A program made the translations under genes and the position numbers. A stretch of 64,000 nucleotides of DNA. Source: Minisyncoccota bacterium (GTDB lineage: Bacteria; Patescibacteriota; Minisyncoccia; 2-02-FULL-40-12; GWA2-44-9). Location of the stretch: the NCBI GenBank assembly GCA_030583765.1, contig CP129474.1, positions 405,168 through 469,167 of the forward strand, read 5' to 3'. The notes beneath the pieces were generated by a model. That model was not told the origin of the DNA. It saw only the letters and a program-made list of their open reading frames with translations, and searched no databases. Positions 20,921-46,035 of this stretch are shown here, piece by piece; the first letter of the stretch is position 1, and each line of letters starts with the position of its first letter.

Positions 20921-21295
20921 CTAACGTACTATAACGGAGCACCGGGCGGTTTTTTCTCCGCTGGTTACAATGATTTCTTGTCGTCCTTCTGTTTCTGCAG
21001 AGAAAGCGATGATAGCAATTGATTCCGCGGTGGTGATGTAGGCAATGTTTGCGCCGGGGACATCCCAACGATAGGGTGGGCGGCCTCCTTCTGCAAAAAC
21101 AATGAGGTCTTGCTCAGGCGCGACGTGCGTGCTTTTGGGGGAGCAGACAAGAGGCTGCTGATCCGCGCCCGAAGAAGAGATTTCGGGAGTAAAGAGCGTT
21201 TGTTGAAACAACGCAAGCATACCAATGGTACCAGCAAACGTAGTGGCAATTACTGAAACCCATGTTCGTGATACGGAAAAAGAGTAGCGACCCAT
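20921..21295 (-). CDS. Small membrane-anchored protein with one copy of the Cys-bracketed GG-x-Y-x-W Ig-like repeat
   Basis: An N-terminal TM segment followed by LVCSPKST...FAEGGRPPYRWD...CSVIV. It is the last gene of the sortase/surface-protein operon. Confidence 0.55.
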   Translation of the reverse strand: MGRYSFSVSRTWVSVIATTFAGTIGMLALFQQTLFTPEISSSGADQQPLVCSPKSTHVAPEQDLIVFAEGGRPPYRWDVPGANIAYITTAESIAIIAFSAETEGRQEIIVTSGEKTARCSVIVR

Positions 21296-21299
21296 AGTG

Positions 21300-21932
21300 T
21301 TAGGGGAGCGGCGCTTGAATGACTCCTATGCCACACTCCGCGAATTGTCCAGAAGCGGAAACGCGGACGCTGTGATGTGTTACGCTCTCTTGTGGCGTTG
21401 TGGTAAAAGTATTCCCAGTTCCGCTGGCAGGATTGGTGCTTTGAGAACTCCATGCATAAGCTCCACTCCCGCCGGTAGCAAAAATGCGCGCACTTTGACC
21501 TTGGAAGAGAGTTTGGTAGAGCGGCACACATCGCAGCGGCGGCGTCGCTGCTTCTTGTGGGAAGGCTGCTTCGGTGACATATACTTCACAAAATGCGATG
21601 TCGTCTCCGCTTCGTACCACGACTGGTTTCCGGTGCGGGTCACCATCAATGGATCCTTGCATATATCGTGTTGTAAATGTGGCGTCAGATCCAGAGTTCT
21701 GTTCCGCATCTTCAGCAACCCAGGTATACACTCCACTACCACCGCTTGCCGAGAGGGTAACTGTGTCTCCAGCAATAACTGACTGGTATAGCGGGGAACA
21801 GCGCAGACTACCCGAAGAGCCGCTACTTTCGGACGGGACGGATTCCACAAGTGTGCGCGCAACCCACACCCCTCCTGCAGAGAGCAAGAGCAGTGCGACA
21901 ACGAGAACGTTTTTTTGGGTGAAGGATATCAT
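21300..21932 (-). CDS. Secreted/anchored protein with two copies of the Cys-bracketed Ig-like repeat
   Basis: A signal anchor MISFTQKNVLVVALLLLSAGG, then LRCSPLYQ...SASGGSGVYTWV...CEVYV and LRCVPLYQ...ATGGSGAYAWS...CGIGV. It overlaps the upstream gene by 4 bp. Confidence 0.6.
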   Translation of the reverse strand: MISFTQKNVLVVALLLLSAGGVWVARTLVESVPSESSGSSGSLRCSPLYQSVIAGDTVTLSASGGSGVYTWVAEDAEQNSGSDATFTTRYMQGSIDGDPHRKPVVVRSGDDIAFCEVYVTEAAFPQEAATPPLRCVPLYQTLFQGQSARIFATGGSGAYAWSSQSTNPASGTGNTFTTTPQESVTHHSVRVSASGQFAECGIGVIQAPLP

Positions 21933-24574
21933 TGCTTGAAGTTCTCACGCGCCCTCTCACGAACCAGTTCCTGGGCCTCTTTCGTGCGGAAGCGATTCGT
22001 GTGTGCATATGCGGCATATGCGGCACCTGCGAAAGAGCCGAGCGCAAGTGCTAGGAACAGCGTTTCTGCCGGGCCTGTTTGGACTTGGGCGACGATGGCA
22101 ATGGCGCTAGGGAGGAAGATTGGGAGCTCTGCTACGATGAGTGGAATGTTGTCTGCGCGAGCTTGTGATCGATTGATAATTGTGCGTCCCAGTGTTCCGA
22201 GACTTGCAGGATCGCGCATGAGCGCAGAAAAGCGCACTACACTTTCCTGGTTTGCCTGGAGCGTGCCTAGTGAGATTCCGGCTTCAATATTTGCATCAGG
22301 ACGGGAAACCCCATTAATACCAACAGAGCCAAACACGAAACTCATTTCACTTGGCAAGGTGTCTTGCACTATGACATTTGTGGCCGCTTGAGCACCTGCG
22401 CGCACGCGGAGCGTGAATTCAATTGTATCTCTTGCGCGTGCCTGTACTGGCGTTGTGGAAACTAGGTCTCCTTGAGTTATATTACGCCCCTCTTTTATCA
22501 ACTGCATTGAGACTGGAGAGCCTCCAACCCCTGGTGTGCCCGCCGTAGTGATTTGGACGAAAGCCTGATCACTCACGTTGAGGGCGTTAGTGGATCGAGC
22601 AAAGGCGGTGTTGATATGAGTTGATGTTCCCGCTGGGAATGAGCCGGCCCCAGCTACGCGTGCCTGGAAGCGGATAGTAGTACTCTGCCCAGGGACCATG
22701 TCTCCTATCACAATGTCGCCGTCTCCTGCGGGGGCTCCGTCGCGGGTCGTTGTCCCCGCCATACGAATGATAGTGGCCGGTTGCTCATCGGAGAATACGA
22801 CACTGCGCGCCGTATCATTCCCAACAGATCTGATCCGAATCGTATAAAACACGAGGTCTCCTGGTGCGGCGACAATGCTCTCACTGTCTGTGGCGCCAAC
22901 AATATCGCGCCGTACCAATTTCTCTATCTCAAGACGAACCGTTGGACCAGTACCTCCACCTCCGCCACCTCCTCCGCCCGATGGAGGGGGGCTCGTTGGC
23001 GTTGCCGTAGGTGTTGGACTTGCGGGCGGCACCGTAGGTGTCGGAGTGGGGGATGCGGGTGGATCAGTGGGTGTTGGTGTCGGAGTTACCGGTGGTGTTG
23101 CCGTAGGTGTTGGACTTGCGGGCGGGTCAGTAGGGGTTGGTGTTGGGGTTGGGGAGGAGAGAGGCGCAATCGCAACAATACAAGTGACGGTTGTTGCTCC
23201 ATCTGAGAGTACGACATCCTGACTTGAACTGGCAAAAGACGATGAAAAGGCAACAGAAAAGACGGGCCCAGTGCCTGTTGCGGGTTGGCCATTTACTGCA
23301 CTCCATGTATATATGCCGCTTCCGCCCGAGGCCACTACATGGGCTTCTTGGTTTGTATCAACGAGTTGCGAGAGCGGCTCACAAGACAAGGGGATCGCCG
23401 TAGGTGTCGGAGTGGGGGATGCGGGTGGATCAGTGGGTGTTGGTGTCGGAGTTACCGGTGGTGTTGGCGTAGGAGTGGGACTTGCGGGCGGGTCAGTAGG
23501 GGTTGGCGTTGGGGTTGGGGAGGAGAGAGTGACGGGGCATACTGCAGAGCGGCCTGTACGGCTCTCTACGACGACCTCTCGTTCTGCCGGGTCTGCGTCC
23601 GCGAAGGTGACTGTAAATGTATCTCCTTCGCCATCTTGCGGGTCAGCATCGTCGTCAAATGCTTGCCAGAGGAAAGGAGGAATTCCAGAACCAGAAAGAC
23701 TAAATGTTATCGGGACTCCGGGGAAGAACGGGCCAACAGGAGCAACGCAGGCAAAGTCTTCAAATGCGAGGACGACCTGACATGTGGCGGACTGGCCATC
23801 GCTTGCAACGGTTACATCAAAGATTGCTCCGCCGGCAACATTAGGATACTGCACACCAACAAGCGCGCCGCTTGTGCTGCTTAGACTACCTCCCGGAGCT
23901 GTCCACGTATATGTCCCACTCCCGCCGATTGCGCCAATAAATGCCTGATTATTTCCATTTCCTGGAGTAACAACTTGTAATGCGGGAACGCAGGTAAGTG
24001 TGGTAGGAGTCGGTGTGGGGGTAGGAGTCGGTGTGGGGGTAGGAGTCGGTGTGGGGGTAGGCTGTGCATATAGCTCATCACAGTAAAGTTGAGTGTTGTC
24101 TACATCCCCAACATCGCGGAACTGAACCCCCAAGAATTGACTCGAATGGAAGGATGGTGGCTCTGGTGCTGGGCCAAAAATAAGATCAACTTGTGAGTAG
24201 CATGCATCAATTGAAACAGAGAGATCAACCCAAGATCCTGGCGCAACAGACCGCGAATCTTCGTCATAAATAGTCTGCTGTGCGGTGTAGTGTGGGGGCG
24301 TTCCGCCACGATCTGACCAAATGCTATAGGAAACTAAAGTGATAACGCAATCAACATCGTTATCATTGCGAACTCGCGAAGACGCTGAGCCACCTGAGAT
24401 ATTTACTTTGCTACCCTGTGAGAAAATAAGGTTTTTATCACATACAGCAGCGTCCGATGATTGGAAGCGATCCAGTGTTGCTGGTATTTGAGTGGCGGCA
24501 ATAACGGCAAGCGCGGTGATGCTTGCAATACCGATGTACCCCAAAGCCTTTTTTATAGATGGGCTTAAAGTCAT
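21929..24574 (-). CDS. Large (881 aa) cell-surface protein
   Basis: An N-terminal signal anchor, three Ig-like repeats, (PT)n and Gly9 linkers, two DUF11-like domains, and the C-terminal sorting signal (VQTGPAE + TM + basic tail), all read from the translation. The gene contains a duplicated segment of about 130 bp. Confidence 0.75.
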   Translation of the reverse strand: MTLSPSIKKALGYIGIASITALAVIAATQIPATLDRFQSSDAAVCDKNLIFSQGSKVNISGGSASSRVRNDNDVDCVITLVSYSIWSDRGGTPPHYTAQQTIYDEDSRSVAPGSWVDLSVSIDACYSQVDLIFGPAPEPPSFHSSQFLGVQFRDVGDVDNTQLYCDELYAQPTPTPTPTPTPTPTPTPTPTTLTCVPALQVVTPGNGNNQAFIGAIGGSGTYTWTAPGGSLSSTSGALVGVQYPNVAGGAIFDVTVASDGQSATCQVVLAFEDFACVAPVGPFFPGVPITFSLSGSGIPPFLWQAFDDDADPQDGEGDTFTVTFADADPAEREVVVESRTGRSAVCPVTLSSPTPTPTPTDPPASPTPTPTPPVTPTPTPTDPPASPTPTPTAIPLSCEPLSQLVDTNQEAHVVASGGSGIYTWSAVNGQPATGTGPVFSVAFSSSFASSSQDVVLSDGATTVTCIVAIAPLSSPTPTPTPTDPPASPTPTATPPVTPTPTPTDPPASPTPTPTVPPASPTPTATPTSPPPSGGGGGGGGGTGPTVRLEIEKLVRRDIVGATDSESIVAAPGDLVFYTIRIRSVGNDTARSVVFSDEQPATIIRMAGTTTRDGAPAGDGDIVIGDMVPGQSTTIRFQARVAGAGSFPAGTSTHINTAFARSTNALNVSDQAFVQITTAGTPGVGGSPVSMQLIKEGRNITQGDLVSTTPVQARARDTIEFTLRVRAGAQAATNVIVQDTLPSEMSFVFGSVGINGVSRPDANIEAGISLGTLQANQESVVRFSALMRDPASLGTLGRTIINRSQARADNIPLIVAELPIFLPSAIAIVAQVQTGPAETLFLALALGSFAGAAYAAYAHTNRFRTKEAQELVRERARENFKQ

Positions 24575-25014
24575 GGTGTTAGCGTACAGTCATCTGTTCT
24601 CGTGGGTATCGTAGCTTGCGCCGGATCTCCACTGATAAGCAGCAGCCCATATCCAGGGAATGAAGTATTGATGGATGTGCTAAAAGTGCTACCCGAACCA
24701 GACGCTGGGGCTCCCCCGAAAGCGCGCCATGTAAATGTTCCATTTCCGCCACTTGCTGTTGCTGAAACGGAAATAGTGCCCCCCGCTTCTTCTAAAGAGG
24801 TAACCGTGCATAGGACGGGTTCTATGAGGTCAGAGAGTGAAATGTCGGCGGGGATTGAAGCGCTTCCGCGTTCGACATTGACGGCAACATCAGGAGCTCC
24901 AGAAAGCGCGAGCGCGAGGACAATGCCTATTGCAAGGAAAATCAAGAGTCCTGCGACCTTGCGTTCGTGGATTTGGACCCACTGCACTATTTGTTCTCGG
25001 GAGGGAGTGCGCAT
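24571..25014 (-). CDS. Small TM-anchored protein with one Ig-like repeat (GGNGTFTWRA)
   Basis: An N-terminal TM segment LLIFLAIGIVLALAL. It overlaps its neighbours by 4 bp and 28 bp, as expected for translational coupling within the operon. Confidence 0.55.
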   Translation of the reverse strand: MRTPSREQIVQWVQIHERKVAGLLIFLAIGIVLALALSGAPDVAVNVERGSASIPADISLSDLIEPVLCTVTSLEEAGGTISVSATASGGNGTFTWRAFGGAPASGSGSTFSTSINTSFPGYGLLLISGDPAQATIPTRTDDCTLTP

Positions 25015-28000
25015 GTTATTGACCCATCGCTTTGTATATTACATTCTATCACATTTGCTGCCTGAGATCCTGAGAAATCAACATCTCCTGGCGGCGTAAT
25101 CGCAATAGACGCAATGCCAAGGAGTACGAGCGTTAGGGGTGCGGTTGCAAAATTGAACGTTGTTGATTGTGCGGCTAGCTCGCGAGCTTCTCCAGTCTTC
25201 CATCTGTGCAATCGTGTAATACCAAGCCATGTGCCAGCGACAATAAATGCTCCTCCAAGGGCAATGAGAAGTGACTCGGCGATGCCCGTTGACACGGCGC
25301 TTGCGTCCCGCAGGCCCCCTCCCATGAGAATAGTGGCGTGTTCCGCCTGAACTCTGGAAAGGTTGGTTGCTTCTACGGCTGCGCGAGTGACAAGTGCCTG
25401 TGTCCCAATGCCTGCTCGCAGCTCCGTTTTAGTAGAGAATCGGACACTCACCGTGTCGCCAGCTCGCAACGATCCTAGTGCAATATTGCGACGTATGTCC
25501 GCGTTAGCGTCCTGTACACCGTTGATAGAGAGGGTGCCAGGTACAAACGTGAGGTATTCAGGAAGAGTGATTGTGGCAGTTGCGTTGTTTGTGGTATGTA
25601 TTGCGCGCACGAGAAGGGCGAGCTCGAGTGTTTCGCCTTGCATGGCGCGGGTTTCTTGCGAGAGTTGCGTGGCTCCTCGCGAAAGATTACGCCCACTGAG
25701 CGAGAGAGTGATGGCGGGTATCCCTGGGGAGATGTTTTCTCCGCCTTGATTATTCGAATTACCTATCTGTGGAGAGGCCCGGAAGATGGAAAGTGTTCCT
25801 GCGTGGGCGATGCGGCCATGTGTGTCGCTGGTGAGGGATGCGGTAATGGGAATGACCGTTGTCCCGATTGCAAATGCGGACTCATTTGCTACGGAGAGGG
25901 TCCCAGAAATTTCTATCGTGCGCGTTCCAGAGATGCTCCCAATACGAACGGTGCGCCCGTCGACCGCCCCTGAAGATGTGCGCAATGAATTTGGTACGAG
26001 GGATACTGTGCTTGGTAGCGCAAGTGTTAGAGATGCATTTGTAAGCGCACTAACAGACTGTGTTTCCACAAGGATGCGCATAGCAACGTTTTGTCCAGGA
26101 GTGCGGGAAAGGGTGTTCGTGAATGCTCCCGTAGCTTCTGGTTCGCGGAATCCAATAGCGAGAGAGATGCTGTCTGCTTGGGTGGTTGGGTTTTGTGATG
26201 TAGCAGTGGCTTGCCGCACAGTGACGCCACACACTGCCGACCGCGTTCCATCAGAGACGGTGACGGAACGGGATCCAGGGGCACTAAAGCGTGTGGTAAA
26301 CGATGCTCCCGTACCCTGTGAAGGGGTACCCGCCCCAGAGCTCCATGTATATGTTCCGCTGCCGCCACGAGCCCGAATGAGAGCATCATCTCCTACTGAG
26401 ACAGACTGAGAAAGCGGCTCACAGGCAAGGGTCTGATTGTTTTCTGATGCGGGAGTTTCTTGTACAACAATACTGCATGCCTGCGATACTCCACCGCTAA
26501 CAACGGTGACTATATGTGTTCCTGGAGAGTCTGGCGTTGTGCGGAAGACAGATGCGCCGCCAGTGCGAGGGATGCCGTTGGATGTTGACCATGCGTATGC
26601 CCCCGTGCCTCCGGTGGCGAATATATTTGCTGCTTGTCCGCGAGTAATAATTTGATTAAGTGGTGTACACGCGAGGGGTGCGCTCGGAATTTGTGGGGGA
26701 ATGTTGACAAGTGTCGTTGGGCTTGGTGTTGGCGAAGGCGTCGCTTGCGACGACGGGCTTGGCGTTGTGGTCACGGGCGCTGTCGGAGTCGGGGTTATTT
26801 GTGAGGTGGGTGTTGGTGTGAATGCAGGCGTGCTACTTGGCTGGATGCTTATGATTGGGGTCGGTGACGAAGAGACTGGCACCGGTTCTGGGGCAACAAG
26901 GACGAGGCATGAAGTTGTCTCCGCGCCACTGCGCACAGTCACCGTGTGTTGATCAAGGCATGTCGGACCTAGGAGCTGTGCATTAAAAATCGGAATTGTG
27001 TCTGACGAAATAGGACAAAGGAGCCGAGGAGTATTCAGGGTGTAGCGCGTACTAAAGCTTGTCCCGGTGCCGGCGGACGTGGTCGCTCGTGGTGCGCTCC
27101 ATTGATACGTTCCCGTGCCTCCAGTTGCGGTGAAAATTACCTCTTGTCCCGGTGCGACAACTCGTGATGAGGGTACGCAGGCAAGCGTTTGTGGGCCAGG
27201 TGTTGCACTGGGAGCCGGTGTTGTAGTGGGCGTGCGCGTTGGGGTTGGTGTGGCGCCAGAGCAGGGGATGCCAAGTATCTTATATCCGATGGCGCGATGC
27301 ACTGCGCGAAGCGTGTCTCCATGTTCGCGCGTACCAGATGGACGACCATATGAGAACATGGTGATCGCTTTTACGCGGCGGTCGTTATAAGCCGCATAGT
27401 ATGCCGGAGCCTGAAGGTCTTTGAGTGTAGTGAGATTTGTCCACGAACCATTCCTCGCGTACGCCATCATGACGATAACTATGTCTTTCGATGCTGGAAC
27501 GCGTTGTTTCGCGCGAGAAAGGAATGAGGAGAGGGCTCCCACGTTTGTGCTCGAGGTGTTGCTACCTGGCGGATCGATATAGGCCTCAATGCCGACCCAA
27601 TCGAGGCCGTCAGAGAATAGCATGTCTTGTTGCATGAGCTGATCATCTGTATAGACGACCCCCACTGGTCTCTGAGCAAGGTTTCGCGCTCGCAACTTTG
27701 CCTCAATGTCTTTTATGCGCTGCTCTGTTTGAGCTCGTGTCCAGTTTGGTTCGTCTCCGAGCTCAATGCGGGTCACCTTGCTCCAGTAGGGGCGCATCAT
27801 GTCGAGCACACGGTTGATCGTTGTATCTGTGACCTGGTCGCGCTCCATGCCGAGGGCAAGGTAAATATTCTTATTGTCCTCAAATGCTCGGCGCACTGCC
27901 GCATCCATTTTTGGGATCCAGACATCATCGCTTTCTTCAGAGTGGGATTCATATCCACGTCGTACCCATGCGTGATATGTGTTGGTGAAGCTTGAGACTT

Positions 28001-29024
28001 CGTTATATACATCCCCATAGCGTCCATCGGTAAAGTAGTATGCAAAATCAATGGGATGGTTGGGGTTGGGAAGCGCGGCACACGTACTTGGGAACGGAGT
28101 CGCTATAGGCGCTGGGGTTGGTGTTGCCTGATTGCAGGATATGCCATAGTTAAACACTACATTAAAACCCTCTCCAGTACCTTCGCCATCGATAAGCCAT
28201 TCGGCGCCTTGCACAATGCGGCCACAGTTATATGCGCCAGTGTCGTAGCTGATGCGCCATTGCTGATTTTTTCCTTGGCCAAAGTGCGTTTCGCCACGAT
28301 CAAATCCTTGCGCCCACGTTGTGCCAGGCTCGCTGTTATTTCTACTCCACCCAGCAGTCGGTACGTGATCGGCATAGAATTTGAGGTTTACTTCTTTTCC
28401 AGTAGTGTTGTCCAACAAGCCTCCTGCAAAAATTTTGGAACACGAAGAGAGGGGATCGGTATTTTCCTGATCGCCAAATTTAGAAAAACTACACTCATCT
28501 GTTGAGCGCGAAAGATCCCACGAAAACGATCCTGGGGCCTGTGATGGAGGGTTGCATTCACCGTTCGAGCAACCATACTCACATGCGGGCTCTAGATTTT
28601 CTCCATTGCAATTACTGTAGTGCTGGAAAACATATTCTTTCCTCCCTACGCCATTGCATGAGCGATAGGTTTCTTCACACGCTTCTCCACTTCCGGATAA
28701 TCCAGGATTCTCTACGTTTTCCGCGTTGGTAATGATGCTCTGGCTGCCTGTGGAATTGTATGGATCAGTAGGGCACGAACCAACCTCGGCGTAGGTGCCG
28801 TCCGGACATTCTTCAAAGCCACTTTGCTCGAATGGTCCAGGCGCTGCACGGAACTCAGACAAACGGATAGACAGAAGTGTCCCACCGTAAGCGACGGCAA
28901 CAATAGCGAGCGTAGCGATACTAATAGTGAACCACCTTACTCTATGCAGTGCGTGCACAAAGAAGCCAATGCGCGAGGCTATGGCGCCAAAGAGTTCAAC
29001 GAGAGAATCTCGCCCTGATTGCAT
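24987..29024 (-). CDS. Giant (1345 aa) cell-surface protein
   Basis: It begins with an N-terminal TM segment, a Cys-rich segment and a TIM-barrel-like, hydrolase-like region. Next come (PT)n linkers, three Ig-like repeats, DUF11-like domains and the sorting signal VSTGIAE + TM + RLHRWK. All were read from the translation. Confidence 0.75.
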   Translation of the reverse strand: MQSGRDSLVELFGAIASRIGFFVHALHRVRWFTISIATLAIVAVAYGGTLLSIRLSEFRAAPGPFEQSGFEECPDGTYAEVGSCPTDPYNSTGSQSIITNAENVENPGLSGSGEACEETYRSCNGVGRKEYVFQHYSNCNGENLEPACEYGCSNGECNPPSQAPGSFSWDLSRSTDECSFSKFGDQENTDPLSSCSKIFAGGLLDNTTGKEVNLKFYADHVPTAGWSRNNSEPGTTWAQGFDRGETHFGQGKNQQWRISYDTGAYNCGRIVQGAEWLIDGEGTGEGFNVVFNYGISCNQATPTPAPIATPFPSTCAALPNPNHPIDFAYYFTDGRYGDVYNEVSSFTNTYHAWVRRGYESHSEESDDVWIPKMDAAVRRAFEDNKNIYLALGMERDQVTDTTINRVLDMMRPYWSKVTRIELGDEPNWTRAQTEQRIKDIEAKLRARNLAQRPVGVVYTDDQLMQQDMLFSDGLDWVGIEAYIDPPGSNTSSTNVGALSSFLSRAKQRVPASKDIVIVMMAYARNGSWTNLTTLKDLQAPAYYAAYNDRRVKAITMFSYGRPSGTREHGDTLRAVHRAIGYKILGIPCSGATPTPTRTPTTTPAPSATPGPQTLACVPSSRVVAPGQEVIFTATGGTGTYQWSAPRATTSAGTGTSFSTRYTLNTPRLLCPISSDTIPIFNAQLLGPTCLDQHTVTVRSGAETTSCLVLVAPEPVPVSSSPTPIISIQPSSTPAFTPTPTSQITPTPTAPVTTTPSPSSQATPSPTPSPTTLVNIPPQIPSAPLACTPLNQIITRGQAANIFATGGTGAYAWSTSNGIPRTGGASVFRTTPDSPGTHIVTVVSGGVSQACSIVVQETPASENNQTLACEPLSQSVSVGDDALIRARGGSGTYTWSSGAGTPSQGTGASFTTRFSAPGSRSVTVSDGTRSAVCGVTVRQATATSQNPTTQADSISLAIGFREPEATGAFTNTLSRTPGQNVAMRILVETQSVSALTNASLTLALPSTVSLVPNSLRTSSGAVDGRTVRIGSISGTRTIEISGTLSVANESAFAIGTTVIPITASLTSDTHGRIAHAGTLSIFRASPQIGNSNNQGGENISPGIPAITLSLSGRNLSRGATQLSQETRAMQGETLELALLVRAIHTTNNATATITLPEYLTFVPGTLSINGVQDANADIRRNIALGSLRAGDTVSVRFSTKTELRAGIGTQALVTRAAVEATNLSRVQAEHATILMGGGLRDASAVSTGIAESLLIALGGAFIVAGTWLGITRLHRWKTGEARELAAQSTTFNFATAPLTLVLLGIASIAITPPGDVDFSGSQAANVIECNIQSDGSITCALPPENK

Positions 29025-29077
29025 TACTCACAGTATACCTCTGTGCATGCGAGATTGCATGCATTTTTGTCCACATC

Positions 29078-29707
29078 TTACTCAAAGACGCGCTCTGCAT
29101 AGACCGCGATGCGACGATAGTTTGTGCCAACCGGCCAGCAACTGAGGAGCACAAGGCTGGGGGTGTTTGTCTGCTCGAGCTCGGTGAGGCGCGCATCATC
29201 GGCAAACGGGTTAAAGACAATAGATTTTTTCATTTCAAATACAAACGTTCTCCCGTCTTCATATCGCACATAGAAGCGCTCGCCTGGGTGGAGCTTGCCG
29301 AGCAAGGCAAACACGGAGCCGTATGCTCCACGATACCACGGATACGCTGAGCTGTGTCCTAAAACGATTGCGATGCCGTCTTGTCCCGGTTTCACGCTAT
29401 TACCATAGTGGACAACGCCGTCTTCGAGGCGCTCATAGATATCATCGTTCTGTGGCGGAACGTTAAAGACTATTGGAGCATCAACGCCGAGCCGATCAAT
29501 AACGAGGCGGGCGTTATGAGGGAGCGGACGCTGGGCGATGTCGTCGGCGAGAGGAAAGAGCGTCGGGATTCCAGCGAGAGAGTCGTCTCGGATAATAGTG
29601 CCCGGAGCAACGAAGTACCGAATGTTTGCGCCCACAAAGCGAATATTGAGGAGGCTAAAAATAATAATGAATGAAAAAGTAAAAATGCCCGCAAAGCGAA
29701 TTTTCAT
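29078..29707 (-). CDS. Sortase (transpeptidase)
   Basis: An N-terminal TM segment, then LVIDRLGVDAPIV, a catalytic His in IVLGHSS, Cys in LVLLSCWP, and Arg in YRRIAVYA. This is the sortase TLxTC/His/Arg triad pattern. Confidence 0.75.
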   Translation of the reverse strand: MKIRFAGIFTFSFIIIFSLLNIRFVGANIRYFVAPGTIIRDDSLAGIPTLFPLADDIAQRPLPHNARLVIDRLGVDAPIVFNVPPQNDDIYERLEDGVVHYGNSVKPGQDGIAIVLGHSSAYPWYRGAYGSVFALLGKLHPGERFYVRYEDGRTFVFEMKKSIVFNPFADDARLTELEQTNTPSLVLLSCWPVGTNYRRIAVYAERVFE

Positions 29708-29788
29708 GGCACGCGCATGGTTGTGGAGATGTGGGGGCATATAACACACAGCGCCCTCGCGGGCGCTGTGTAGTGTGCATCACAAACG

Positions 29789-32566
29789 TTATGCCGTTAG
29801 TGACCGCCCGCGCTGGCGAAGTAGCTGAGCTCCAGTATAGCGCATGTGGCCGTAGGTGACGAGCATACTGCCAACAAGTGCGAGCACGGCGGTGTCTGCT
29901 GGTCCTGTGGGAACCTTTCCAACAGTACCAATCGACGTACGGGAGATGGGCAGCGTCGCGGAAACCTGGGACGCATTATCTGCGCGCGCATACCCAACAT
30001 TAATGACGTTATATGTGCCAGAAGGGAATGTGGTCCCTGTGTTTGTGCGCGTCGAGAAGCGAACGCTCGCCTCTTGATTTGGTGCGAGTGAGCCGATTTG
30101 GATACCTCCGCTGGTGACGCCATCGCCAACGGCAATACTGTTTACACCGGTTGAGCCACCGAGATACGTGAATCCTTCGGGAAGCGTATCCCATACCACG
30201 ACGTTTGAAAGCGTCGTGCTGGTTGTATTGCGAACGCGGAGTGTAAATTCAATTGTTTCATTTGATCCAACGACGAGAGATGAGGACTCCGTAACCTGTC
30301 CACGCGAAATATTGCGTCCAGTTTTCTGAATAGACATCTGTCCGTTGCCCGGGTTGCCATAGCCTCGTGAAACATTCACGAGAGCGGTGTCGGAGACGCT
30401 CCCCGTATTGTTCGCAGTTGCAGTTGCAGTGTTGACGAGCGTGGTTGTGCCGCTTGAGAATGCAGAGTCGTTGTCGACAGTTGCGCGGAATCGCACTGTG
30501 ATCGTGCGCCCCGAGCTATAGGATCCGAGGTTGAGACCGGAAGACGTGAGTGTGTCGCCAGTGTAGGAGCCATCGATAGTGGTGCTTCCCGAAACGTAGG
30601 TTGCGCGATGGGGCAACGCATCGGTGAGACGCAAGTTTTCGACATATGTGCCGCCATGAATATTAATGCGAATGACGTATTCCAGTGAGTCGCCCGGGTC
30701 GGCGGCAACGACGTCTTGCTCATTTGTGCCATCCGAGATGTTGCGTACCTGTTTCGTAAGGGAGATATTTGCGGATGAGTTATTGTTGCCAATGCGAACG
30801 GAGCACGTTGCGGTCTGGTTTCCGCTCGAGAGATACACCATATTCGTGGTGTCGTATGAGCTATACCACCGTGTCGAGAAGCTCGAGCCCGTGCCATAAT
30901 TCGGATCGCCACCCGAGGCGTTCCATGAGTAGGAGCCAGTGCCACCGTTTGCGTAAAAGTACACCGTTTGGCCGCTCTGAGCGTTCTGATATGACGGTGA
31001 GCAGGAGAGAGATTGGTTCTGCGTCGGCTGTACGTATACGGAGCACGTTGCGGTCTGGTTTCCGCTTACCACCTGCACATTGCGTGTGCCAGAATATGAG
31101 AACGAAGAGGTGAAGTTTGAGCCGCTGCCAGTTGTTGGGTTGCCATCATACGCAAACCATGAATATGTTCCGTTGCCACCCTGTGCGAAGAAGATGGCGT
31201 TTTGGTTGATAGTAACTGTTTGGTTCGCTGGCGAGCAGGTAAGAGTCTGGTTCTGCGTCGGCTGTACGTTCACTGAGCATGCTGTGCTTTGGGTGCCGCT
31301 CACTACGTACACATTGCGTGTGCCTGGAGTACTAAACGTTGTGGCGAAGGACGCGTTTGAGCCAAAACTTGGGTTGCCGTCGTATGCGTTCCAGATATAT
31401 GAGCCAGTGCCACCGCTTGCCACAAATTGTGCCAACTGTCCTACAAACACTGTTTGGTTTGCTGGCGAGCAGGTAAGAGTTTGATTTTGTGCGGGCTGCA
31501 CTGTTACAACGCAGGTAGCGCTTTGAGTGCCACTGACAAGATACACATTGCGTGTGCCTGGAGTACTAAACGTTGTGGCGAAGTTTGAGCCGGTTCCGTA
31601 TGTTGGGGTGCCATCATACGTGTTCCAGACATAAGTGCTCGCTCCGCCTGAGGCAGAGAATTGCGCGAGCTGCCCCACGACAACCGTTTGTGTGGTGGGT
31701 GAGCATGAGAGAACTGTTGGCGTTGGAGTCGGGGTTGGTGTGGGAGTGACGGTTGCGCCACAAGCTTGAGCGGTTACGGCAACGGCGACCGTGTTTGAAG
31801 AAACGAGCGGGTGAGCTTTTACACGGTAGGTGTATGTGTTGCCGAGAGAAACTGCGGTGTCGGTGTAGATGTTGCTGTTGTATGCCGGTCCTGGCGTGAT
31901 GAAAAATCCCTCGCCGCCGTTGATGGTTTTAATGACTCCGTTCGAATTGCGATTCGCAACAAGATTCCACGTAAGGTTAATGCGTGGATTTGTGCCACCA
32001 ACGCATTGCGCTGAAAGCGTAGGGGAGGTAGGGAGAACTGTTGGCGTTGGGGTCGGGGTTGGTGTGGGGGTTGGTGTTGGAGTGGGAGTTGCGATGGCGC
32101 CACAGTAATTTGGGTGTTCAAATTTATCTATCGATGCTACGAGATAGTGCCCACTTGTTGGTCCACCGAAAAATGGAGGCGTGAGCGGCTCGCCCTGGAA
32201 CAAATCTAGCTGGTATTTGCAGGTTGTCGGGACGCTTACCTGCAGACGGGTTGAGCCAATGGTTTCTCCCGGTGCAAGAGTAAACGTCTTTGCATCATGA
32301 AGCGTTTGGTTAGCGAGTTCGCCATTTGGATTAACGCGATATGACGCAATGCCAATGGTGTATGTGCATGATGTAGAACGGTTCTCGATCCACGCCATTG
32401 CACGTGGGTCCTGGGCGCTACCAGTTGCGGTGAAATGTCCAAAAAGATGTTGAGACGCATCGTCACAGACATCGGCAGCAGTGACAGGTGTGCCAGAAAG
32501 GGCCCCAGAAAAGAGGAAAATGGCAAAAAAGACACCGATTCCTGCCCATGGAGTGAGTTTTTGCAT
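29789..32566 (-). CDS. Large (925 aa) cell-surface protein
   Basis: The translation reads signal peptide, N-terminal Cys-containing domain, (PT)n, an FN3-like domain, four tandem Ig-like repeats, and two DUF11-like domains. It ends with the sorting signal VPTGPAD + TM + basic tail. The Ig-like repeats are encoded by tandem DNA repeats of about 230 bp. Confidence 0.8.
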   Translation of the reverse strand: MQKLTPWAGIGVFFAIFLFSGALSGTPVTAADVCDDASQHLFGHFTATGSAQDPRAMAWIENRSTSCTYTIGIASYRVNPNGELANQTLHDAKTFTLAPGETIGSTRLQVSVPTTCKYQLDLFQGEPLTPPFFGGPTSGHYLVASIDKFEHPNYCGAIATPTPTPTPTPTPTPTPTVLPTSPTLSAQCVGGTNPRINLTWNLVANRNSNGVIKTINGGEGFFITPGPAYNSNIYTDTAVSLGNTYTYRVKAHPLVSSNTVAVAVTAQACGATVTPTPTPTPTPTVLSCSPTTQTVVVGQLAQFSASGGASTYVWNTYDGTPTYGTGSNFATTFSTPGTRNVYLVSGTQSATCVVTVQPAQNQTLTCSPANQTVFVGQLAQFVASGGTGSYIWNAYDGNPSFGSNASFATTFSTPGTRNVYVVSGTQSTACSVNVQPTQNQTLTCSPANQTVTINQNAIFFAQGGNGTYSWFAYDGNPTTGSGSNFTSSFSYSGTRNVQVVSGNQTATCSVYVQPTQNQSLSCSPSYQNAQSGQTVYFYANGGTGSYSWNASGGDPNYGTGSSFSTRWYSSYDTTNMVYLSSGNQTATCSVRIGNNNSSANISLTKQVRNISDGTNEQDVVAADPGDSLEYVIRINIHGGTYVENLRLTDALPHRATYVSGSTTIDGSYTGDTLTSSGLNLGSYSSGRTITVRFRATVDNDSAFSSGTTTLVNTATATANNTGSVSDTALVNVSRGYGNPGNGQMSIQKTGRNISRGQVTESSSLVVGSNETIEFTLRVRNTTSTTLSNVVVWDTLPEGFTYLGGSTGVNSIAVGDGVTSGGIQIGSLAPNQEASVRFSTRTNTGTTFPSGTYNVINVGYARADNASQVSATLPISRTSIGTVGKVPTGPADTAVLALVGSMLVTYGHMRYTGAQLLRQRGRSLTA

Positions 32567-32574
32567 ATGCTTGT

Positions 32575-32603
32575 ATTCTACAATAAAATGTTTTTAAAGT
32601 CAA
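32575..32603 (-). promoter_or_regulatory. sigma70-like promoter for the surface-protein/sortase operon (minus strand: TTGACT, 17-nt spacer, TAGAAT); the predicted TSS is essentially at the ATG, so the mRNA would be leaderless
   Basis: The reverse complement of 32598-32603 is TTGACT and of 32575-32580 is TAGAAT. The ATG lies at 32564-32566. Confidence 0.5.
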
Positions 32604-32798: not shown

Positions 32799-32885
32799 TG
32801 GTGCCCGGGGTGGGAATCGAACCCACACGGCCTTTCGGCCACATCATTTTAAGTGACGTGCGTCTGCCAGTTTCGCCACCCGGAC
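32799..32885 (-). tRNA. tRNA-Leu (anticodon UAA), type II with a long variable arm, CCA encoded
   Basis: Acceptor GTCCGGG/CCCGGGC, anticodon loop CTTAAAA, variable arm TGGCCGAAAGGCCG, and T-arm GTGGGTTCGATTCCCAC. Confidence 0.85.
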
Positions 32886-33356
32886 TTTGCTTTTGTTTTT
32901 TCCTCGATGCGTTGCCTGAAGGCTATGACAATTAGGGCAAAGAATGCGTAAGTTTTCAATCCTATTATCGCTGTGGTCGCCGTTTATATGATCAAGCTCG
33001 ACTGGTATTCTGCCATCTTTTGCAGTTTTTGCCCAGCTGCACTCCTCGCATTGTGGCTGTTTTAATCCTGCCAAGAAAAGACGCTTTTTTAACTTAAAAC
33101 TTTGGAAAGCGCTACCACGCACAAGGATGTCTTCTAGTGTTCTACGTGGTTTCCCGATGCCTCGGAGACCCTTATTCCACGCAGATCCAGTGAAATGATC
33201 TATGGGAACTTGTAGCGCTGTTAGCCTCGCCTTAATGCTTTGGTAGTTCCCGCCGGCGGGGATGAGGTTGAGGCGACTAATAACTTCACGGATGCTTTTG
33301 CTCCGTTGTGTGGCTGTGCGAAGTTTAGCGTCGCTCCACGTGCGTCCTCTTGGCAT
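32844..33356 (-). CDS. Free-standing HNH endonuclease (homing-endonuclease-like), inserted between tRNA genes
   Basis: ELDHINGDHSDNRIENLRILCPNCHS carries the HNH His-Asn-His and Cys4 motif. The last roughly 40 nt of the ORF overlap the 5' half of tRNA-Leu. GC is lower than the flanks. Confidence 0.8.
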   Translation of the reverse strand: MPRGRTWSDAKLRTATQRSKSIREVISRLNLIPAGGNYQSIKARLTALQVPIDHFTGSAWNKGLRGIGKPRRTLEDILVRGSAFQSFKLKKRLFLAGLKQPQCEECSWAKTAKDGRIPVELDHINGDHSDNRIENLRILCPNCHSLQATHRGKNKSKVRVAKLADARHLK

Positions 33357-37012: not shown

Positions 37013-37104
37013 GGAGGCGTGTCAGAGTGGTCTAATGTACCTCTTTGCTAAAGAGGCAGGGGCGTTAAAACCCCTCGGAGGTTCGAATCCTCCCGCCTCC
37101 GCCA
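37013..37104 (+). tRNA. tRNA-Ser (anticodon GCU), type II, CCA encoded
   Basis: Acceptor GGAGGCG/CGCCTCC, anticodon loop TTGCTAA, long variable arm CAGGGGCGTTAAAACCCCTCG, and T-arm GGAGGTTCGAATCCTCC. Confidence 0.85.
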
Positions 37105-37189: not shown

Positions 37190-37276
37190 GGAGAGGTGGC
37201 TGAGTGGTTGAAAGCAGCGGTTTACTAAACCGCCGGGCTCGCAAGAGCCTCGTGGGTTCGAATCCCACCCTCTCCG
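37190..37276 (+). tRNA. Ser-like type-II tRNA whose anticodon loop reads TTACTAA (apparent anticodon ACU); possibly tRNA-Ser with a G34A change, or a pseudo/variant tRNA
   Basis: Acceptor GGAGAGG/CCTCTCC-G, 3-bp D-stem GCT/AGC, anticodon stem GCGGT/ACCGC, long variable arm CGGGCTCGCAAGAGCCTCG, and T-arm GTGGGTTCGAATCCCAC. CCA is not encoded. Confidence 0.6.
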
Positions 37277-37431
37277 CATATGCTTTTGAACATGCCTTTA
37301 GGCATATTTAAAAGCATCTAGTGTGGAAAGTGGGGCGGCATTCGAACGGCCGGAGTGATGTTGCGTCACCAGATGCAACCACGAGGCCCGGCCCTGAGGC
37401 TATGACGAGCGACGGCGAGTCAGAGACCGAA

Positions 37432-37463: not shown

Positions 37464-38195
37464 TTATATCTCCCGCGCGATGACGAGCGCGGAGACAGAG
37501 GAAGCGCCTGCGGCGCGTAAAGCTGTGGCGCACGCATCAAGTGTGGCGCCAGTCGTGCATACGTCATCAATGAGCAGAATACTTTTTCCTTTTACGAGCG
37601 AAGGGTGTGGGCATGAGAATAAATTCTGCACTGATAAGAATCGCTCGGTACGCGAATGGTGCACTTGGGTTTCAGTGTGGTGGGTGCGCATAAGTGTGGC
37701 CGGCGCGTAGATCTGCTGTGTGGCGTGCGCAATAATCTCTGCAATGCGCCCTGCTTGGTTGAACCCGCGCCAGTTTAGGCGCCGCGTGTGGAGAGGCACG
37801 GGAACAATGAGGGGGTTTTCGGAAAAGATATTGCGCGTACGCGACATGCGCTTGAGTGCGCGCAACACTACGCGGCCGAGCGGGCGGTGCAAGTCTTCAA
37901 TGCATCCATACTTATATGCGTGAAGTGCGGTGCGCACGGCAGGGTGTTGAAAGTGGGTGGCGGCGTAGAGCGCACTAATATTCCATTCTGGAGCGCACGA
38001 GGAACACGCTACGCCTTGTGGTGTGGCGCGAGCGCAGCCAATACATTGTCCGGATGCGCTCACAGGAATGCGGCCGGCACACGCGCGACAGAGGTAGCGA
38101 TCGCGGGGATCGTAGGGGAGCGCGTCACACGCGACGCATCGCGGCGGGAAAATGGCATCGGCAAGGGTGGTGCACAGCTGGGCGATGGAGGGCAT
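37464..38195 (-). CDS. comFC: ComF-family protein (ComFC; phosphoribosyltransferase-like competence protein with N-terminal double zinc ribbon)
   Basis: An N-terminal zinc-ribbon region with CxxC pairs (CVAC...CRAC...CIGC...CSSC), and a C-terminal PRTase motif ILLIDDVCTTGATL. Confidence 0.8.
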   Translation of the reverse strand: MPSIAQLCTTLADAIFPPRCVACDALPYDPRDRYLCRACAGRIPVSASGQCIGCARATPQGVACSSCAPEWNISALYAATHFQHPAVRTALHAYKYGCIEDLHRPLGRVVLRALKRMSRTRNIFSENPLIVPVPLHTRRLNWRGFNQAGRIAEIIAHATQQIYAPATLMRTHHTETQVHHSRTERFLSVQNLFSCPHPSLVKGKSILLIDDVCTTGATLDACATALRAAGASSVSALVIAREI

Positions 38196-38218
38196 GGTAT
38201 ACTACAGGTGACGTTACC

Positions 38219-39268
38219 ATGTTCAAACTTTTTCAGTCAAAAGGAAAACTCGGTGTCGATATCGGGACACATGCTATTAAAATTGTCGAGCTTGGGAAGG
38301 ATAACGGGCGCTTTACTCTTTTAAACTATGGCATCTTCGCATTTCCCGAAACGGGCACAGGCACAACGCCCGAAGAGCGCGATGCATTCCTTACGCAGGG
38401 GATTAAACAACTCATCGAGCAGTGCAAGTTCTCTAGCGTAGATGCCGTTGCCGCAATTCCACCGTTTTCACTGTTCACGACGGTGATTGAAATGCCGTAT
38501 CTTTCGGAAGACGATCTTGCAAAGGCGATTCCCTTTGAGGCGCGTAAGTATGTTCCTATTCCATTAAGCGAGGTGGTGTTGGATTGGTCTATTATTGGCG
38601 TGAATGAAGCGGCGCCAGGATCTACTACGCCACCAACCGTCGAGATTTTTATTGCTGCCGTACCTCGCGAAGAAACAGCTCGCTATCAGGCGATCATGCA
38701 AGCGGCTGGTTTAAATCTTGTTGCACTCGAATTGCAGAACACGGGGCTTATCCGTGGACTACTCGGTAACGATTTAAGTCCCACGGCGGTCGTTGATATC
38801 GGAGGGCGGGGCACAACTATTATTGTCGTGAATAAGGGATATGAACGAGTGAATCGTTCCTATGAGGTGGGGAGTTTTGAAATTACGAAATCCATTGCTC
38901 GCGCGTTGAGCATCAGTGAAGGGAAGGCAGAGGGATTGAAGATGCAGTATGGTTTGCGCGAGGGAGATGACAATGTTATTCGCGATTCAGTAATTTCGCT
39001 TGTCGACCTCATTGTATTTGAAGCAAGCAAAACAATCGCCGGATATGAGGAGTCTAAAAATACAAAAATCGGCCGCGTTGTCGTTACCGGAGGGCTCGCA
39101 AATATGCCAGGTTTTGTTGCATATTTTACAAAGCGTCTCGCGCGCGATGTTATTGTGGGGAATGCGTTCTCTCGGGTTGTCTACCCACAGCAGTTGGCGC
39201 CGGTGATTCAAGAGCTTTCAAACACGCTTGCGGTAGCCACAGGTTTAGCCATGCGCGAAGAAAGCTAA
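38219..39268 (+). CDS. pilM: Type IV pilus assembly protein PilM (actin-like ATPase)
   Basis: MFKLFQSKGKLGVDIGTHAIKIVEL, the typical PilM N-terminus. The start is taken at ATG 38219, 23 bp from the divergent comFC. Confidence 0.8.
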   Translation: MFKLFQSKGKLGVDIGTHAIKIVELGKDNGRFTLLNYGIFAFPETGTGTTPEERDAFLTQGIKQLIEQCKFSSVDAVAAIPPFSLFTTVIEMPYLSEDDLAKAIPFEARKYVPIPLSEVVLDWSIIGVNEAAPGSTTPPTVEIFIAAVPREETARYQAIMQAAGLNLVALELQNTGLIRGLLGNDLSPTAVVDIGGRGTTIIVVNKGYERVNRSYEVGSFEITKSIARALSISEGKAEGLKMQYGLREGDDNVIRDSVISLVDLIVFEASKTIAGYEESKNTKIGRVVVTGGLANMPGFVAYFTKRLARDVIVGNAFSRVVYPQQLAPVIQELSNTLAVATGLAMREES

Positions 39269-39309
39269 TGGTATACTAGCGACAGGGAGCATTCCGCTCT
39301 CTCTTTCCT

Positions 39310-39939
39310 ATGCCAGGCCGCGGCGGCATTCAACTTCTACCTACACTTCCCGGCACCAAGAAAATCGACGTAGCAACGCCGGGGGAATACACCGTACTCA
39401 TTATTGGAGTACTTATTTTCGCTGTGGGCATTGGGTTTTCGCTGTTCGCGTGGCTACAGGTGAAGGCAAAGGAAGAAAAAATTGCAGCATTGAACGTAGA
39501 AATCGAGCAGATTGAAAAATCACGTATTGTAAAAGATGAGCAAACAATTATTGCGTTTCGCAAGCAGCTTGCTCCCGTGGGAAGCATTCTCGACAATCAC
39601 ATATTTGTATCTCAAGGCTTAACGGCTCTTGAGAGCCTTATCCACTCTAAAGTGCAAGTAAAAAACTTATCAATACAAGCACAGCAAGGCTCTGTGTCGG
39701 TGAGGGGATTTGCTCCAGATTACACAACGATCGCGCAACAGCTTGCTACGTTCTTGCGTAAAAATAAGCATGTTACCTCTGCGGTGCTTGGCGGCATGCA
39801 AACAAACAATGCGGGCGGACTTGATTTCGACGTATCGCTTTCAGTGAATAGCGATGCATTTTTCAAGAAGCAACCATCGCCAACGCCTCGGCCGAGCCCT
39901 TCTGGTAAGCCATCTCCCGCAGTTTCTCCTCAGCTATGA
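39310..39939 (+). CDS. pilN: Type IV pilus assembly protein PilN
   Basis: A single N-terminal TM segment, a coiled-coil and a periplasmic domain. It sits in the pilMNO order. Confidence 0.65.
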   Translation: MPGRGGIQLLPTLPGTKKIDVATPGEYTVLIIGVLIFAVGIGFSLFAWLQVKAKEEKIAALNVEIEQIEKSRIVKDEQTIIAFRKQLAPVGSILDNHIFVSQGLTALESLIHSKVQVKNLSIQAQQGSVSVRGFAPDYTTIAQQLATFLRKNKHVTSAVLGGMQTNNAGGLDFDVSLSVNSDAFFKKQPSPTPRPSPSGKPSPAVSPQL

Positions 39940-40523
39940 ATCTCCCCGCTGCGCCAAAAGACATGATCGGTGCGACGCTTGCGGCCATTGGCGTCGCGTT
40001 GGGTTGGGGCTTGGGATACGCACACATGAGCACCTTGGGCGCCCATGATGATGCTATAGCTGAGCGCGAGAGCTTTGTAGAGAAACGCCTTCAGCAAAAA
40101 GCGAATTTTGAGGATCTGTTTGCGGCATACACCTCAGCGAGTGATATTAAGCGCGCAACGCAGGAGATTTTGCCCACCGAAGAAAATATTCCCGAACTTA
40201 TTTCTGCGTTGCAGCAAATGGCTCGCGACTCTGGCGTCGGGGTAAAATCAATTTCAGTGACAGGCGCAGGAGGGGGGAAGGGCACACAGGCATCAGTGAC
40301 GATCCAGCAAGTGGGTATTTCGCTGAGTGTGCAGGGTTCGTATAGTAGTATCAAAACTCTCCTCTCGTTTATAGAGAAGAATCGTCGCATCATTGATGTC
40401 TCAACAATAGATTTTGCTCCAAGTGCAATTGATACGACGATCATTGATACGACGATCTCCGCGAGTGCTTACGTTGCACCCGAACAAGCGCAGCGTGATG
40501 AAGAAACGCCGACGAAGAAGTAA
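39936..40523 (+). CDS. pilO: Type IV pilus assembly protein PilO
   Basis: An N-terminal TM segment plus a coiled-coil, overlapping the pilN stop by 4 bp. Confidence 0.6.
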   Translation: MNLPAAPKDMIGATLAAIGVALGWGLGYAHMSTLGAHDDAIAERESFVEKRLQQKANFEDLFAAYTSASDIKRATQEILPTEENIPELISALQQMARDSGVGVKSISVTGAGGGKGTQASVTIQQVGISLSVQGSYSSIKTLLSFIEKNRRIIDVSTIDFAPSAIDTTIIDTTISASAYVAPEQAQRDEETPTKK

Positions 40524-40538
40524 ATTCTTTTCATACCA

Positions 40539-40823: not shown

Positions 40824-40829
40824 TCATGT

Positions 40830-43657: not shown

Positions 43658-43659
43658 TT

Positions 43660-46018: not shown

Positions 46019-46035
46019 TTGTACGCACAAAAACA

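Follow-up and report, generated by a model that had tools for sequence, protein, structure and literature searches.

A conserved seven-gene sortase operon of a Candidatus Paceibacterota bacterium encodes three large predicted surface proteins with Cys-bracketed PKD-type stalks

Previous studies have described several surface systems with which the locus reported here can be compared. The system of PMC12617251 (2025) combines a Sec signal, a distal head, a stalk of immunoglobulin-like (Ig-like) domains including CLIPPER/DUF11, covalent locks within the domains, a C-terminal transmembrane segment with a basic tail, and an adjacent sortase; DUF11, since renamed CLIPPER, was shown to be an isopeptide domain of the CnaA-like type from which fibrillar adhesins build their stalks (Costa et al. 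2025). In the candidate phyla radiation (CPR), sortases, giant PKD/DUF11/fibronectin surface proteins and disulfide machinery have already been noted in general terms (Meheust et al. 2019; PMC8080830), and both the giant PKD/DUF11/fibronectin proteins of Vampirococcus lugosii (PMC8080830) and the Pam pili of Ca. Mycosynbacter (bioRxiv 10.64898/2026.03.03.709456) are CPR surface structures with Ig-like domains, paired cysteines and a proposed role in host contact. Here we analyzed an operon in a 64-kb stretch of DNA (the window; CP129474.1, 405,168-469,167) from a metagenome-assembled genome (MAG) of a Candidatus Paceibacterota bacterium (CPR/Patescibacteria), whose tiny genome agrees with the reduced-genome source assumed in an earlier reading of the letters alone (the sequence-only reading). 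Seven intact open reading frames (ORFs) span positions 20921-32566 of the window, all on the minus strand, in the order 925-aa surface protein, sortase, 1345-aa surface protein, 147-aa protein, 881-aa surface protein, 210-aa protein and 124-aa protein; our ORF scan reproduced exactly the gene list given in that reading. All positions below are window coordinates.

The operon shares with the system of PMC12617251 the Sec signal, distal head, Ig-like stalk with CLIPPER/DUF11, intradomain locks, C-terminal transmembrane segment with basic tail and adjacent sortase, and differs from it in a [VI]-x-T-G signal without Pro that is often followed by a long FNF tail, in a sortase outside the curated classes, in a disulfide-type PKD stalk and in its CPR host. 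Pam pili, in contrast to the operon, use donor-strand exchange and membrane-anchored chaperones and have no sortase, whereas the V. lugosii proteins are listed by domain content, without a sortase or sorting signal being described. The locus is therefore a variant of a known adhesin design, and neither a new fold nor a new kind of system; the searchable literature yielded no account of a sorting signal without Pro, of modules that are all Cys-bracketed, or of the barrel family discussed below. We consider it probable that the operon encodes a dedicated sortase and three surface proteins that are stalked and anchored to the wall, two of them adhesin-like and one carrying an enzyme, all made of covalently locked modules, as well as three small membrane-tethered proteins. 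According to this proposal, the three giants would be exported by Sec and would carry as distal heads either a lineage-specific 4-Cys domain (925-aa and 881-aa) or a Cys-rich region with a glycoside hydrolase (GH)-like barrel (1345-aa), followed by Pro/Thr (PT) linkers and a stalk of PKD-type Ig domains, each presumably closed by one Cys pair. Two CLIPPER domains would lie next to the wall, and their Lys/Asp/Asn triad in the 925-aa and 881-aa proteins would be compatible with an isopeptide bond. The membrane-anchored sortase (His118/Cys190/Arg199) would cleave after the Thr of [VI]-x-T-G and join each protein to peptidoglycan, so that the heads might project tens of nanometres and bind a partner cell or surface, and the barrel of the 1345-aa protein might cut partner glycans.

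The layouts of the three giants are as follows. The 925-aa protein (29789..32566) has a signal peptide (residues 1-30), a 4-Cys N-terminal domain (31-165), a PT linker, a Cys-bracketed Fn3-like domain (177-272; a label taken from weak homologues that carry PF00041), four tandem Cys-bracketed PKD-like units (285-598; 30773..31714, E 1e-32 to 1e-35 per unit with our own hidden Markov model (HMM)), two CLIPPER/DUF11 domains (599-880) and a sorting signal (885-925). The 881-aa protein (21929..24574) has a signal or anchor, a 4-Cys N-terminal domain (41-170), PT linkers, three PKD-like units (192-475), a Gly9 linker, two CLIPPER/DUF11 domains (548-830) and a sorting signal (831-881). The 1345-aa protein (24987..29024) begins with an N-terminal transmembrane anchor (32-52) and a Cys-rich region (60-300), and continues with a GH-like (beta/alpha)8 barrel (315-588), three PKD-like units (613-942; 26199..27188), the first of which has a 26-aa insert and two extra cysteines, two degenerate CLIPPER-like domains (~955-1225), a sorting signal from residue 1244, a second transmembrane segment and a 2-Cys tail. 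Thus, three secreted proteins with DUF11 domains and C-terminal anchors, as the sequence-only reading had described them, were recovered. The 925-aa and 881-aa proteins share homologous N-terminal 4-Cys domains (E 3e-6), for which one weak further homologue was found; neither these heads nor the Cys-rich region had a credible Pfam match at E<=10 (the sole match was a sub-threshold DUF3268, E 0.12), and a PDB sequence search with the Cys-rich region returned only noise. The description of that region as EGF-like was not borne out, no Pfam EGF match being found even at E<=10.

The operon is conserved. An orthologous operon lies between IF-2 and recG in the Hainich groundwater MAG H51-bin004 (GCA_964361305.1), with gene order and per-protein repeat counts identical to those of the window, which answers the check for conservation proposed with the sequence-only reading. 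Identity to the Hainich orthologues is 91% for the sortase, 83% for the 925-aa, 70% for the 1345-aa, 71% for the 147-aa, 71% for the 210-aa and 56% for the 124-aa protein, and 76% for the 881-aa protein over the aligned C-terminal 489 residues, compared with 84% for RecG and 91% for IF-2 in the same genome pair; the 124-aa protein is also identical to GenBank QY311_02295 from a Candidatus Paceibacterota MAG. All operon ORFs are intact in the Hainich assembly L003 as well, so the frameshifts that would have marked pseudogenes were absent from both genomes. Because the ORFs are intact and their divergence is comparable to that of RecG and IF-2, the genes are, as judged from sequence comparison, functional and under ordinary purifying selection. 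Two Hainich assemblies have a split gene call for the 881-aa orthologue, which suggested an invertible segment; blastn showed only a 70-nt indel in the PT-linker DNA between assemblies of one population (L001 12062-12161 versus L003 10020-10049), which frameshifts the gene call in GCA_964361305.1 and is either a repeat/assembly collapse or real variation in linker length. The full operon with seven genes and 14 repeats was seen only in this genome and its Hainich relative, while remoter loci carry one or two substrates. In remoter relatives (L007-L013, L016, L017; for example L009 9095-9991) a membrane protein of ~300 aa resembling CAP/SCP (motifs YFAHTSPSG... and HR-N), whose gene is absent from the window, lies between substrate and sortase.

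The stalks of the giants and the three small proteins are built from a shared repeat of ~78 aa. With an HMM built from ten seed units (per-unit E 1e-7 to 1e-35) we recovered exactly 14 copies, split 4/3/1/3/2/1 over the six non-sortase proteins in operon order, in agreement with the approximate count of the sequence-only reading; a six-frame scan with the same HMM found no further copies elsewhere in the window. Across the 14 units C4, G23, G24 and W30 are invariant, C68 is present in >=90%, and the consensus is GGxGxYxW...G[ST]G..F. Looking for tandem repeats in the DNA itself, we found them in the PT and Gly linkers only and not in the PKD units, and therefore the unit duplications are old. 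The AlphaFold2 (AF2) model of a unit is a seven-strand Ig-like sandwich (predicted local distance difference test score, pLDDT, 96.6), and Foldseek matched it with template modelling (TM) scores of 0.65-0.72 to SbsC S-layer Ig, ColG PKD-like, archaeal S-layer PKD (1l0q), AAVR PKD and lambda gpV Ig domains; the matches also include the Deinococcus HPI S-layer protein.

Since SbsC, 1l0q and HPI are among the best matches, the giants might instead form a structural envelope or S-layer-type coat, in which PKD and CLIPPER domains make up a lattice or spacer layer tethered by the sortase. A weak NCBIfam match of the 881-aa protein to an anammox S-layer glycoprotein family (1.7e-4, far below cutoff) points the same way, as does the divergence of the operon, which is like that of housekeeping genes and without a sign of an arms race. 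However, S-layer families stayed below threshold throughout Pfam and NCBIfam, there are three paralogues with distinct heads, one of them enzyme-like, and the long flexible PT and Gly linkers together with the polarity of N-terminal head and C-terminal anchor are typical of fibrillar adhesins. We therefore regard a coat as unlikely, although it is the best surviving alternative to stalked proteins that present distal heads.

The sortase gene (29078..29707) most likely starts at ATG 29707 and encodes 209 aa, because its orthologues are 209 aa long; GTG 29749 would give 223 aa, and an exact look-up of the 223-aa form found no match because that start lies too far upstream. The protein matches Pfam Sortase (PF04203) with 67.7 bits against a cutoff of 26.6 (E 1.1e-18) and has an N-terminal transmembrane segment, and its His118, Cys190 and Arg199 (GH118, SC190WP, R199) align with the GH, TC-x-P and R of the solved sortases 2xwg and 8gr6, so the sortase call of the sequence-only reading holds. 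The C-terminus of the 925-aa protein reads K-VPTG-PADT, a hydrophobic segment and RQRGR (29792..29914); that of the 881-aa protein reads Q-VQTG-PAET, a transmembrane segment and RFRTK...NFKQ; and that of the 1345-aa protein reads A-VSTG-IAES, a transmembrane segment, RLHRWK...FNF, a second transmembrane segment and a 2-Cys tail (24990..25295), conserved in the orthologue. Past the sorting signal and basic tail of the 1345-aa protein (residues ~1290-1345; 24990-25160) we observed a second hydrophobic helix and a 30-aa tail with two cysteines, likewise kept in the orthologue. Among all ORFs of the window, an end of the type T-G/transmembrane/basic is confined to the three giants. Thirteen GTDB species representatives, labelled Yanofskybacteria, Paceibacteria, Patescibacteria or 'Saccharibacteria', encode orthologous sortases with 39-91% identity, and [VI]-x-[TA]-G followed by a transmembrane segment and a basic tail was present in 16/16 sortase-adjacent proteins (the three giants of the window included), with Thr in 15/16 and Ala in 1/16. 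The tail of these proteins usually ends ...DK(N/D)(K/R)FNF, and C-termini of this kind, falling into three sub-types, were found in at least 49 of the 150 best repeat-bearing representatives. Because the gene adjacency is conserved and T-G is near-invariant, we argue that a lineage of CPR sortases has [VI]-x-T-G as its cognate sorting signal, at which the sortase would cleave.

The same element could be only a membrane anchor with a conserved cytoplasmic tail, the sortase serving other, canonical substrates encoded elsewhere in the genome. In favour of this, the pentapeptide has no Pro at position 2 and the LPXTG models are silent, the long conserved tail ending in FNF is not a classical feature of sorting signals, and the 1345-aa protein has a further transmembrane segment and an extracellular tail after the element. 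Class E sortases, however, accept Ala in place of Pro (LAXTG), the gene adjacency is conserved, the window offers no other candidate substrate, and T-G stands (near-)invariant at a fixed distance before the transmembrane segment in 16/16 proteins whose sortases are only 39-91% identical; a mere anchor is thus improbable.

Still less probable is a sortase-assembled pilus island, in which a class-C-like sortase would polymerise the three substrates as tip, shaft and base pilins. The arrangement of one sortase gene amid three substrate genes does resemble Gram-positive pilus islands, Actinomyces SrtC-1 (2xwg) is among the closest solved sortases (weak, E 0.0026), and Pfam gave weak matches to GramPos_pilinBB and GBS104-like_Ig (E 0.05-0.13). 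Against this, a pilin motif ([YFW]PK, the YPK type) was found in none of the giants, the class C model reached 24 bits against a cutoff of 160 and scored under the class F and D models, the substrates are multi-domain adhesin-like chains of 881-1345 aa and not compact pilins, and in most related genomes just one substrate accompanies the sortase.

The relation of the repeat to known families was examined further with Pfam. PKD (PF00801) matches the 925-aa protein in four stretches with 43.2 bits against a cutoff of 23.5, and stays below the cutoff on the 1345-aa (19.7 bits) and 881-aa (14.7 bits) proteins; taken singly, 8/14 units match at E<1, the best with 23.8 bits. All ten homologues tested exceed the PKD cutoff (27.5-105.7 bits), and many also match PKD_4, BiPBP_C and DUF11. 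The PKD family conserves a WDFGDG-type signature, which is not present in the 14 units, where only the Trp is invariant. Big_2 (PF02368) gave no match at E<=1 in any of the 14 units. Against the PDB, the 14-unit profile reached intimin D2 (5.5e-7) and phage decoration proteins (6.8e-6 and 3.8e-5), via A-x-GG-x-G-x-Y-x-W. Of the families named for checking in the sequence-only reading, then, PKD and Ig-like structures matched and Big_2 did not, and the mapping onto a well-characterised family that would have spoken against novelty was found in part, for the 925-aa protein (43 bits against 23.5).

Because the homologues pass the Pfam PKD cutoff and the AF2 fold matches PKD-like domains, the repeat is classed, on profile and model, as a PKD-type bacterial Ig-like domain in a putatively Cys-stapled variant, and not as a new fold. 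It shares with the PKD family (PF00801/PF18911; ColG 4aqo/2y72, 1l0q, AAVR 6nz0) the ~80-aa seven-strand Ig sandwich, the Pfam match and the TM scores given above, and differs in having Cys in the first and last strand and GG-x-G-x-Y-x-W/G-[ST]-G instead of WDFGDG. With intimin D2 and phage Ig domains (1e5u/1f00, 5lxk, 8zvi, gpV 2l04) it shares A-x-GG-x-G-x-Y-x-W (E 5.5e-7 to 3.8e-5; TM score 0.72 to 2l04), whereas those domains lack the Cys bracket (5lxk has the second Cys only) and the units lack a Big_2 match. That the repeat is a previously undescribed Ig-like family, as the sequence-only reading had it, is the least credible alternative of all. In its favour, single units are borderline for PKD, the 1345-aa and 881-aa proteins fall below its cutoff, the WDFGDG signature has shrunk to one Trp and the Cys-bracketed form has no dedicated model; against it, the PKD cutoff is passed by the 925-aa protein and 10/10 homologues (up to 105 bits), PKD_4 and BiPBP_C match as well, the profile reaches solved Ig-like domains and the fold is PKD-like. 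A HMMER scan of 1.84 billion representative proteins found 4070 with the repeat at E<=1e-3 and 187 at E<=1e-30, the top match having up to 13 copies. One name is carried among the ten top repeat-bearing proteins, namely Tectomicrobia.

We analyzed the two cysteines in 496 full-length units from the 150 best of the 4070 repeat-bearing representatives. Both were present in 456 units, neither in 32, only the first in 8 and only the second in 0. This almost perfect co-occurrence fits a structural disulfide, as had been suggested for the flanking cysteines. The AF2 model places the first Cys in strand 1 (residues 3-5) and the second halfway along the last strand (64-73), and therefore the bond would staple the N- and C-terminal strands together, whereas classical Ig domains link strands B and F. 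In both genomes each of the six non-sortase proteins has an even number of cysteines, and every non-CLIPPER module is Cys-bracketed near its ends (Fn3-like C188/C269, TIM barrel C315/C588, heads with 4 Cys each). MdbA-like thiol-disulfide oxidoreductases with VKOR, as well as a sortase family, are enriched in CPR (Meheust et al. 2019), which makes it plausible that disulfide chemistry is available in this lineage.

The domains next to the predicted wall are of a different kind. Pfam DUF11 (PF01345) matches two stretches each of the 925-aa (55.6 bits) and 881-aa (54.8 bits) proteins against a cutoff of 24.6, so that the DUF11-like domains noted earlier are true DUF11 in these two proteins, and the CLIPPER-like domains of the 1345-aa protein are below cutoff (TIGR01451, 19.4 versus 24). 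A profile of the six CLIPPER copies had 9IFR, a CLIPPER isopeptide domain, as its best PDB match (8.4e-5) with the D-x-LP motif aligned, a match that phmmer of the PDB with the CLIPPER region alone had missed. All four domains of the 925-aa and 881-aa proteins keep the K, D-x-LP and N columns, whereas both domains of the 1345-aa protein have lost all three and so, unlike 9IFR, lack Lys, Asp and Asn. This pattern suggests that isopeptide-competent (925-aa, 881-aa) and isopeptide-incompetent (1345-aa) copies stand side by side in the operon.

The 1345-aa protein carries a TIM barrel bracketed by C315/C588 (27261..28082). A PDB sequence search with the barrel, as single sequence and as profile, gave noise, and it was fold comparison that classified it as a (beta/alpha)8 barrel of the kind found in clan GH-A (GH5/10/26...), in line with the TIM-barrel-like, enzyme-like region of the sequence-only reading. 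In clan GH-A enzymes, strand 4 ends with the acid/base Glu (N-E-P) and strand 7 with the nucleophile Glu. This catalytic layout is not that of the barrel, in which strand 4 ends A/G-D-E-P, strand 7 (V-x-x-M-M-A-Y) has no conserved acid, and E480 is on strand 6; the invariant residues are E421, D424, E425 and P426 at the end of strand 4 and E480 and Y482 at the end of strand 6. With its D-E doublet, strand 4 recalls substrate-assisted N-acetylhexosaminidases, and one homologue (P0011) has a sub-threshold Pfam NAGidase (GH84) match (E 0.03); we take this hint as a lead and not as a classification. An assignment to GH99 through another homologue (P0017) was rejected, as GH99 is a separate domain there. 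The barrel is the best-conserved part of the 1345-aa protein compared with Hainich (84-94% identity), its family has no Pfam model, and its homologues (P0006-P0022) include non-CPR bacteria (an Oligoflexia MAG and others) and are fused to Big_7, FlgD_ig, TSP_3 or FG-GAP modules. We therefore describe it as an unclassified, predicted glycoside-hydrolase-like domain. The streptococcal enzymes StrH (GH20) and BgaA (GH2) likewise show a glycosidase-type TIM barrel on the surface via a C-terminal sortase signal, as is proposed here, whereas the barrel of the 1345-aa protein is outside the families recognisable by Pfam or CAZy, lacks the strand-7 nucleophile, and has D-E on strand 4 and Glu on strand 6.

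Several points weigh against wall-anchored, stalked adhesins and an enzyme served by a dedicated sortase, a proposal whose support is computational throughout. The sortase missed the cutoffs of all NCBIfam sortase classes (F 43.3/166, D 33.2/165, C 24.2/160, E 24.0/160), and no LPxTG was found at the C-termini of the giants, where Pro is missing and the NCBIfam LPXTG models are silent at E<=1. The 9IFR alignment covers the Asp motif and stops short of the Lys column. Strand 7 of the barrel has no conserved acid where the GH-A nucleophile sits, and its activity is a prediction. Finally, for the heads of the 925-aa and 881-aa proteins no relative with a known function was detected, so the word adhesin is drawn from architecture. 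The surface apparatus for attachment to a host or partner put forward in the sequence-only reading is a real cell-surface system, for which architecture suggests the adhesion role.

As had been read from the sequence, each of the three small proteins is anchored at its N-terminus and contains one or two repeats. The 147-aa protein (24571..25014) has an N-terminal transmembrane anchor and one PKD-like unit (residues 65-147) in which the second Cys is displaced by 7 residues, the 210-aa protein (21300..21932) has an N-terminal signal or anchor and two units (42-125 and 132-210), and the 124-aa protein (20921..21295) has an N-terminal transmembrane anchor and one unit (48-124).

The genes of the operon are closely spaced, with overlaps of 4 bp at 147/881 and 881/210 and of 28 bp at 1345/147, and with gaps of 4 to ~81 nt elsewhere; the 4-bp overlaps and short gaps noted earlier are therefore correct, and the 28-bp overlap is an addition. 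recG follows on the same strand 21 nt downstream of the operon end, and because of this short spacing it may be co-transcribed, the transcription unit extending further. A sigma-70-like promoter, TTGACT-17-TAGAAT (32575..32603, minus strand), matches the consensus at 10/12 positions and was the top site of the region, and both hexamers are conserved at the Hainich orthologous locus while the flanking intergenic DNA has diverged. The region has 9 promoter-like sites compared with 11.1 expected from shuffling, that is, not above expectation, so that of the earlier claim of a single promoter at this position the site stands and its being the only one is plausible. In both genomes the end of the -10 element and the ATG of the leading (925-aa) gene are 7-8 nt apart, leaving no room for a Shine-Dalgarno sequence, and because of this short distance the mRNA is probably leaderless or nearly so.

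Other features of the window were also recorded. A complete type IV pilus cluster (PilM, PilO, PilB-type and PilT-type ATPases, PilC, two N-methyl pilins and the prepilin peptidase PilD) lies at 38018-48491 on the plus strand, 5.5 kb from the sortase operon, and therefore two surface systems are clustered in one region. A LysM-M23 peptidase (8064-9569, minus strand) and a VanW/PG_binding_4 protein (54225-56012, plus strand) are consistent with a peptidoglycan wall available for sortase attachment. Between tRNA-Cys and tRNA-Leu we found an ORF of 170 aa for an HNH endonuclease (Pfam HNH_3, 1.4e-7; 32844-33356, minus strand), the 3' end of which overlaps tRNA-Leu; at the Hainich locus the gap between IF-2 and the operon is ~416 nt, too short to hold this ORF, which is therefore probably a mobile insertion. 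A tRNA at 37190-37277 (plus strand) has a long variable arm of the Ser type and the anticodon loop TTACTAA, giving the anticodon ACU, and sits 85 nt downstream of an ordinary tRNA-Ser(GCU) at 37013-37104; apart from Arg-ACG, tRNAs with A34 are unusual among bacteria.

The Cys-stapled PKD subfamily, as proposed here, is very large (~4000 representative clusters) and only marginally detected by current models, and the operon offers testable items in this subfamily, the non-LPXTG signal, the unclassified barrel and the lineage-specific head domain. Further, we put forward as a speculative and rather doubtful extension that Paceibacteria and related CPR use a distinct sortase class with a signal of [VI]-x-T-G, a transmembrane segment and a long conserved cytoplasmic FNF tail, and that the operon would be its most elaborate cargo, with all modules covalently locked, the PKD, Fn3-like, head and TIM-barrel modules by a terminal disulfide and the CLIPPER domains by an isopeptide bond, and with a new glycosidase family, possibly (in view of the D-E doublet) a substrate-assisted hexosaminidase, attacking the partner wall; it may then be a host-attachment and wall-opening apparatus of episymbiotic CPR. 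How CPR bacteria attach to partner cells and feed on them is little understood beyond type IV pili, and the operon provides a concrete, conserved candidate for this part of their biology.

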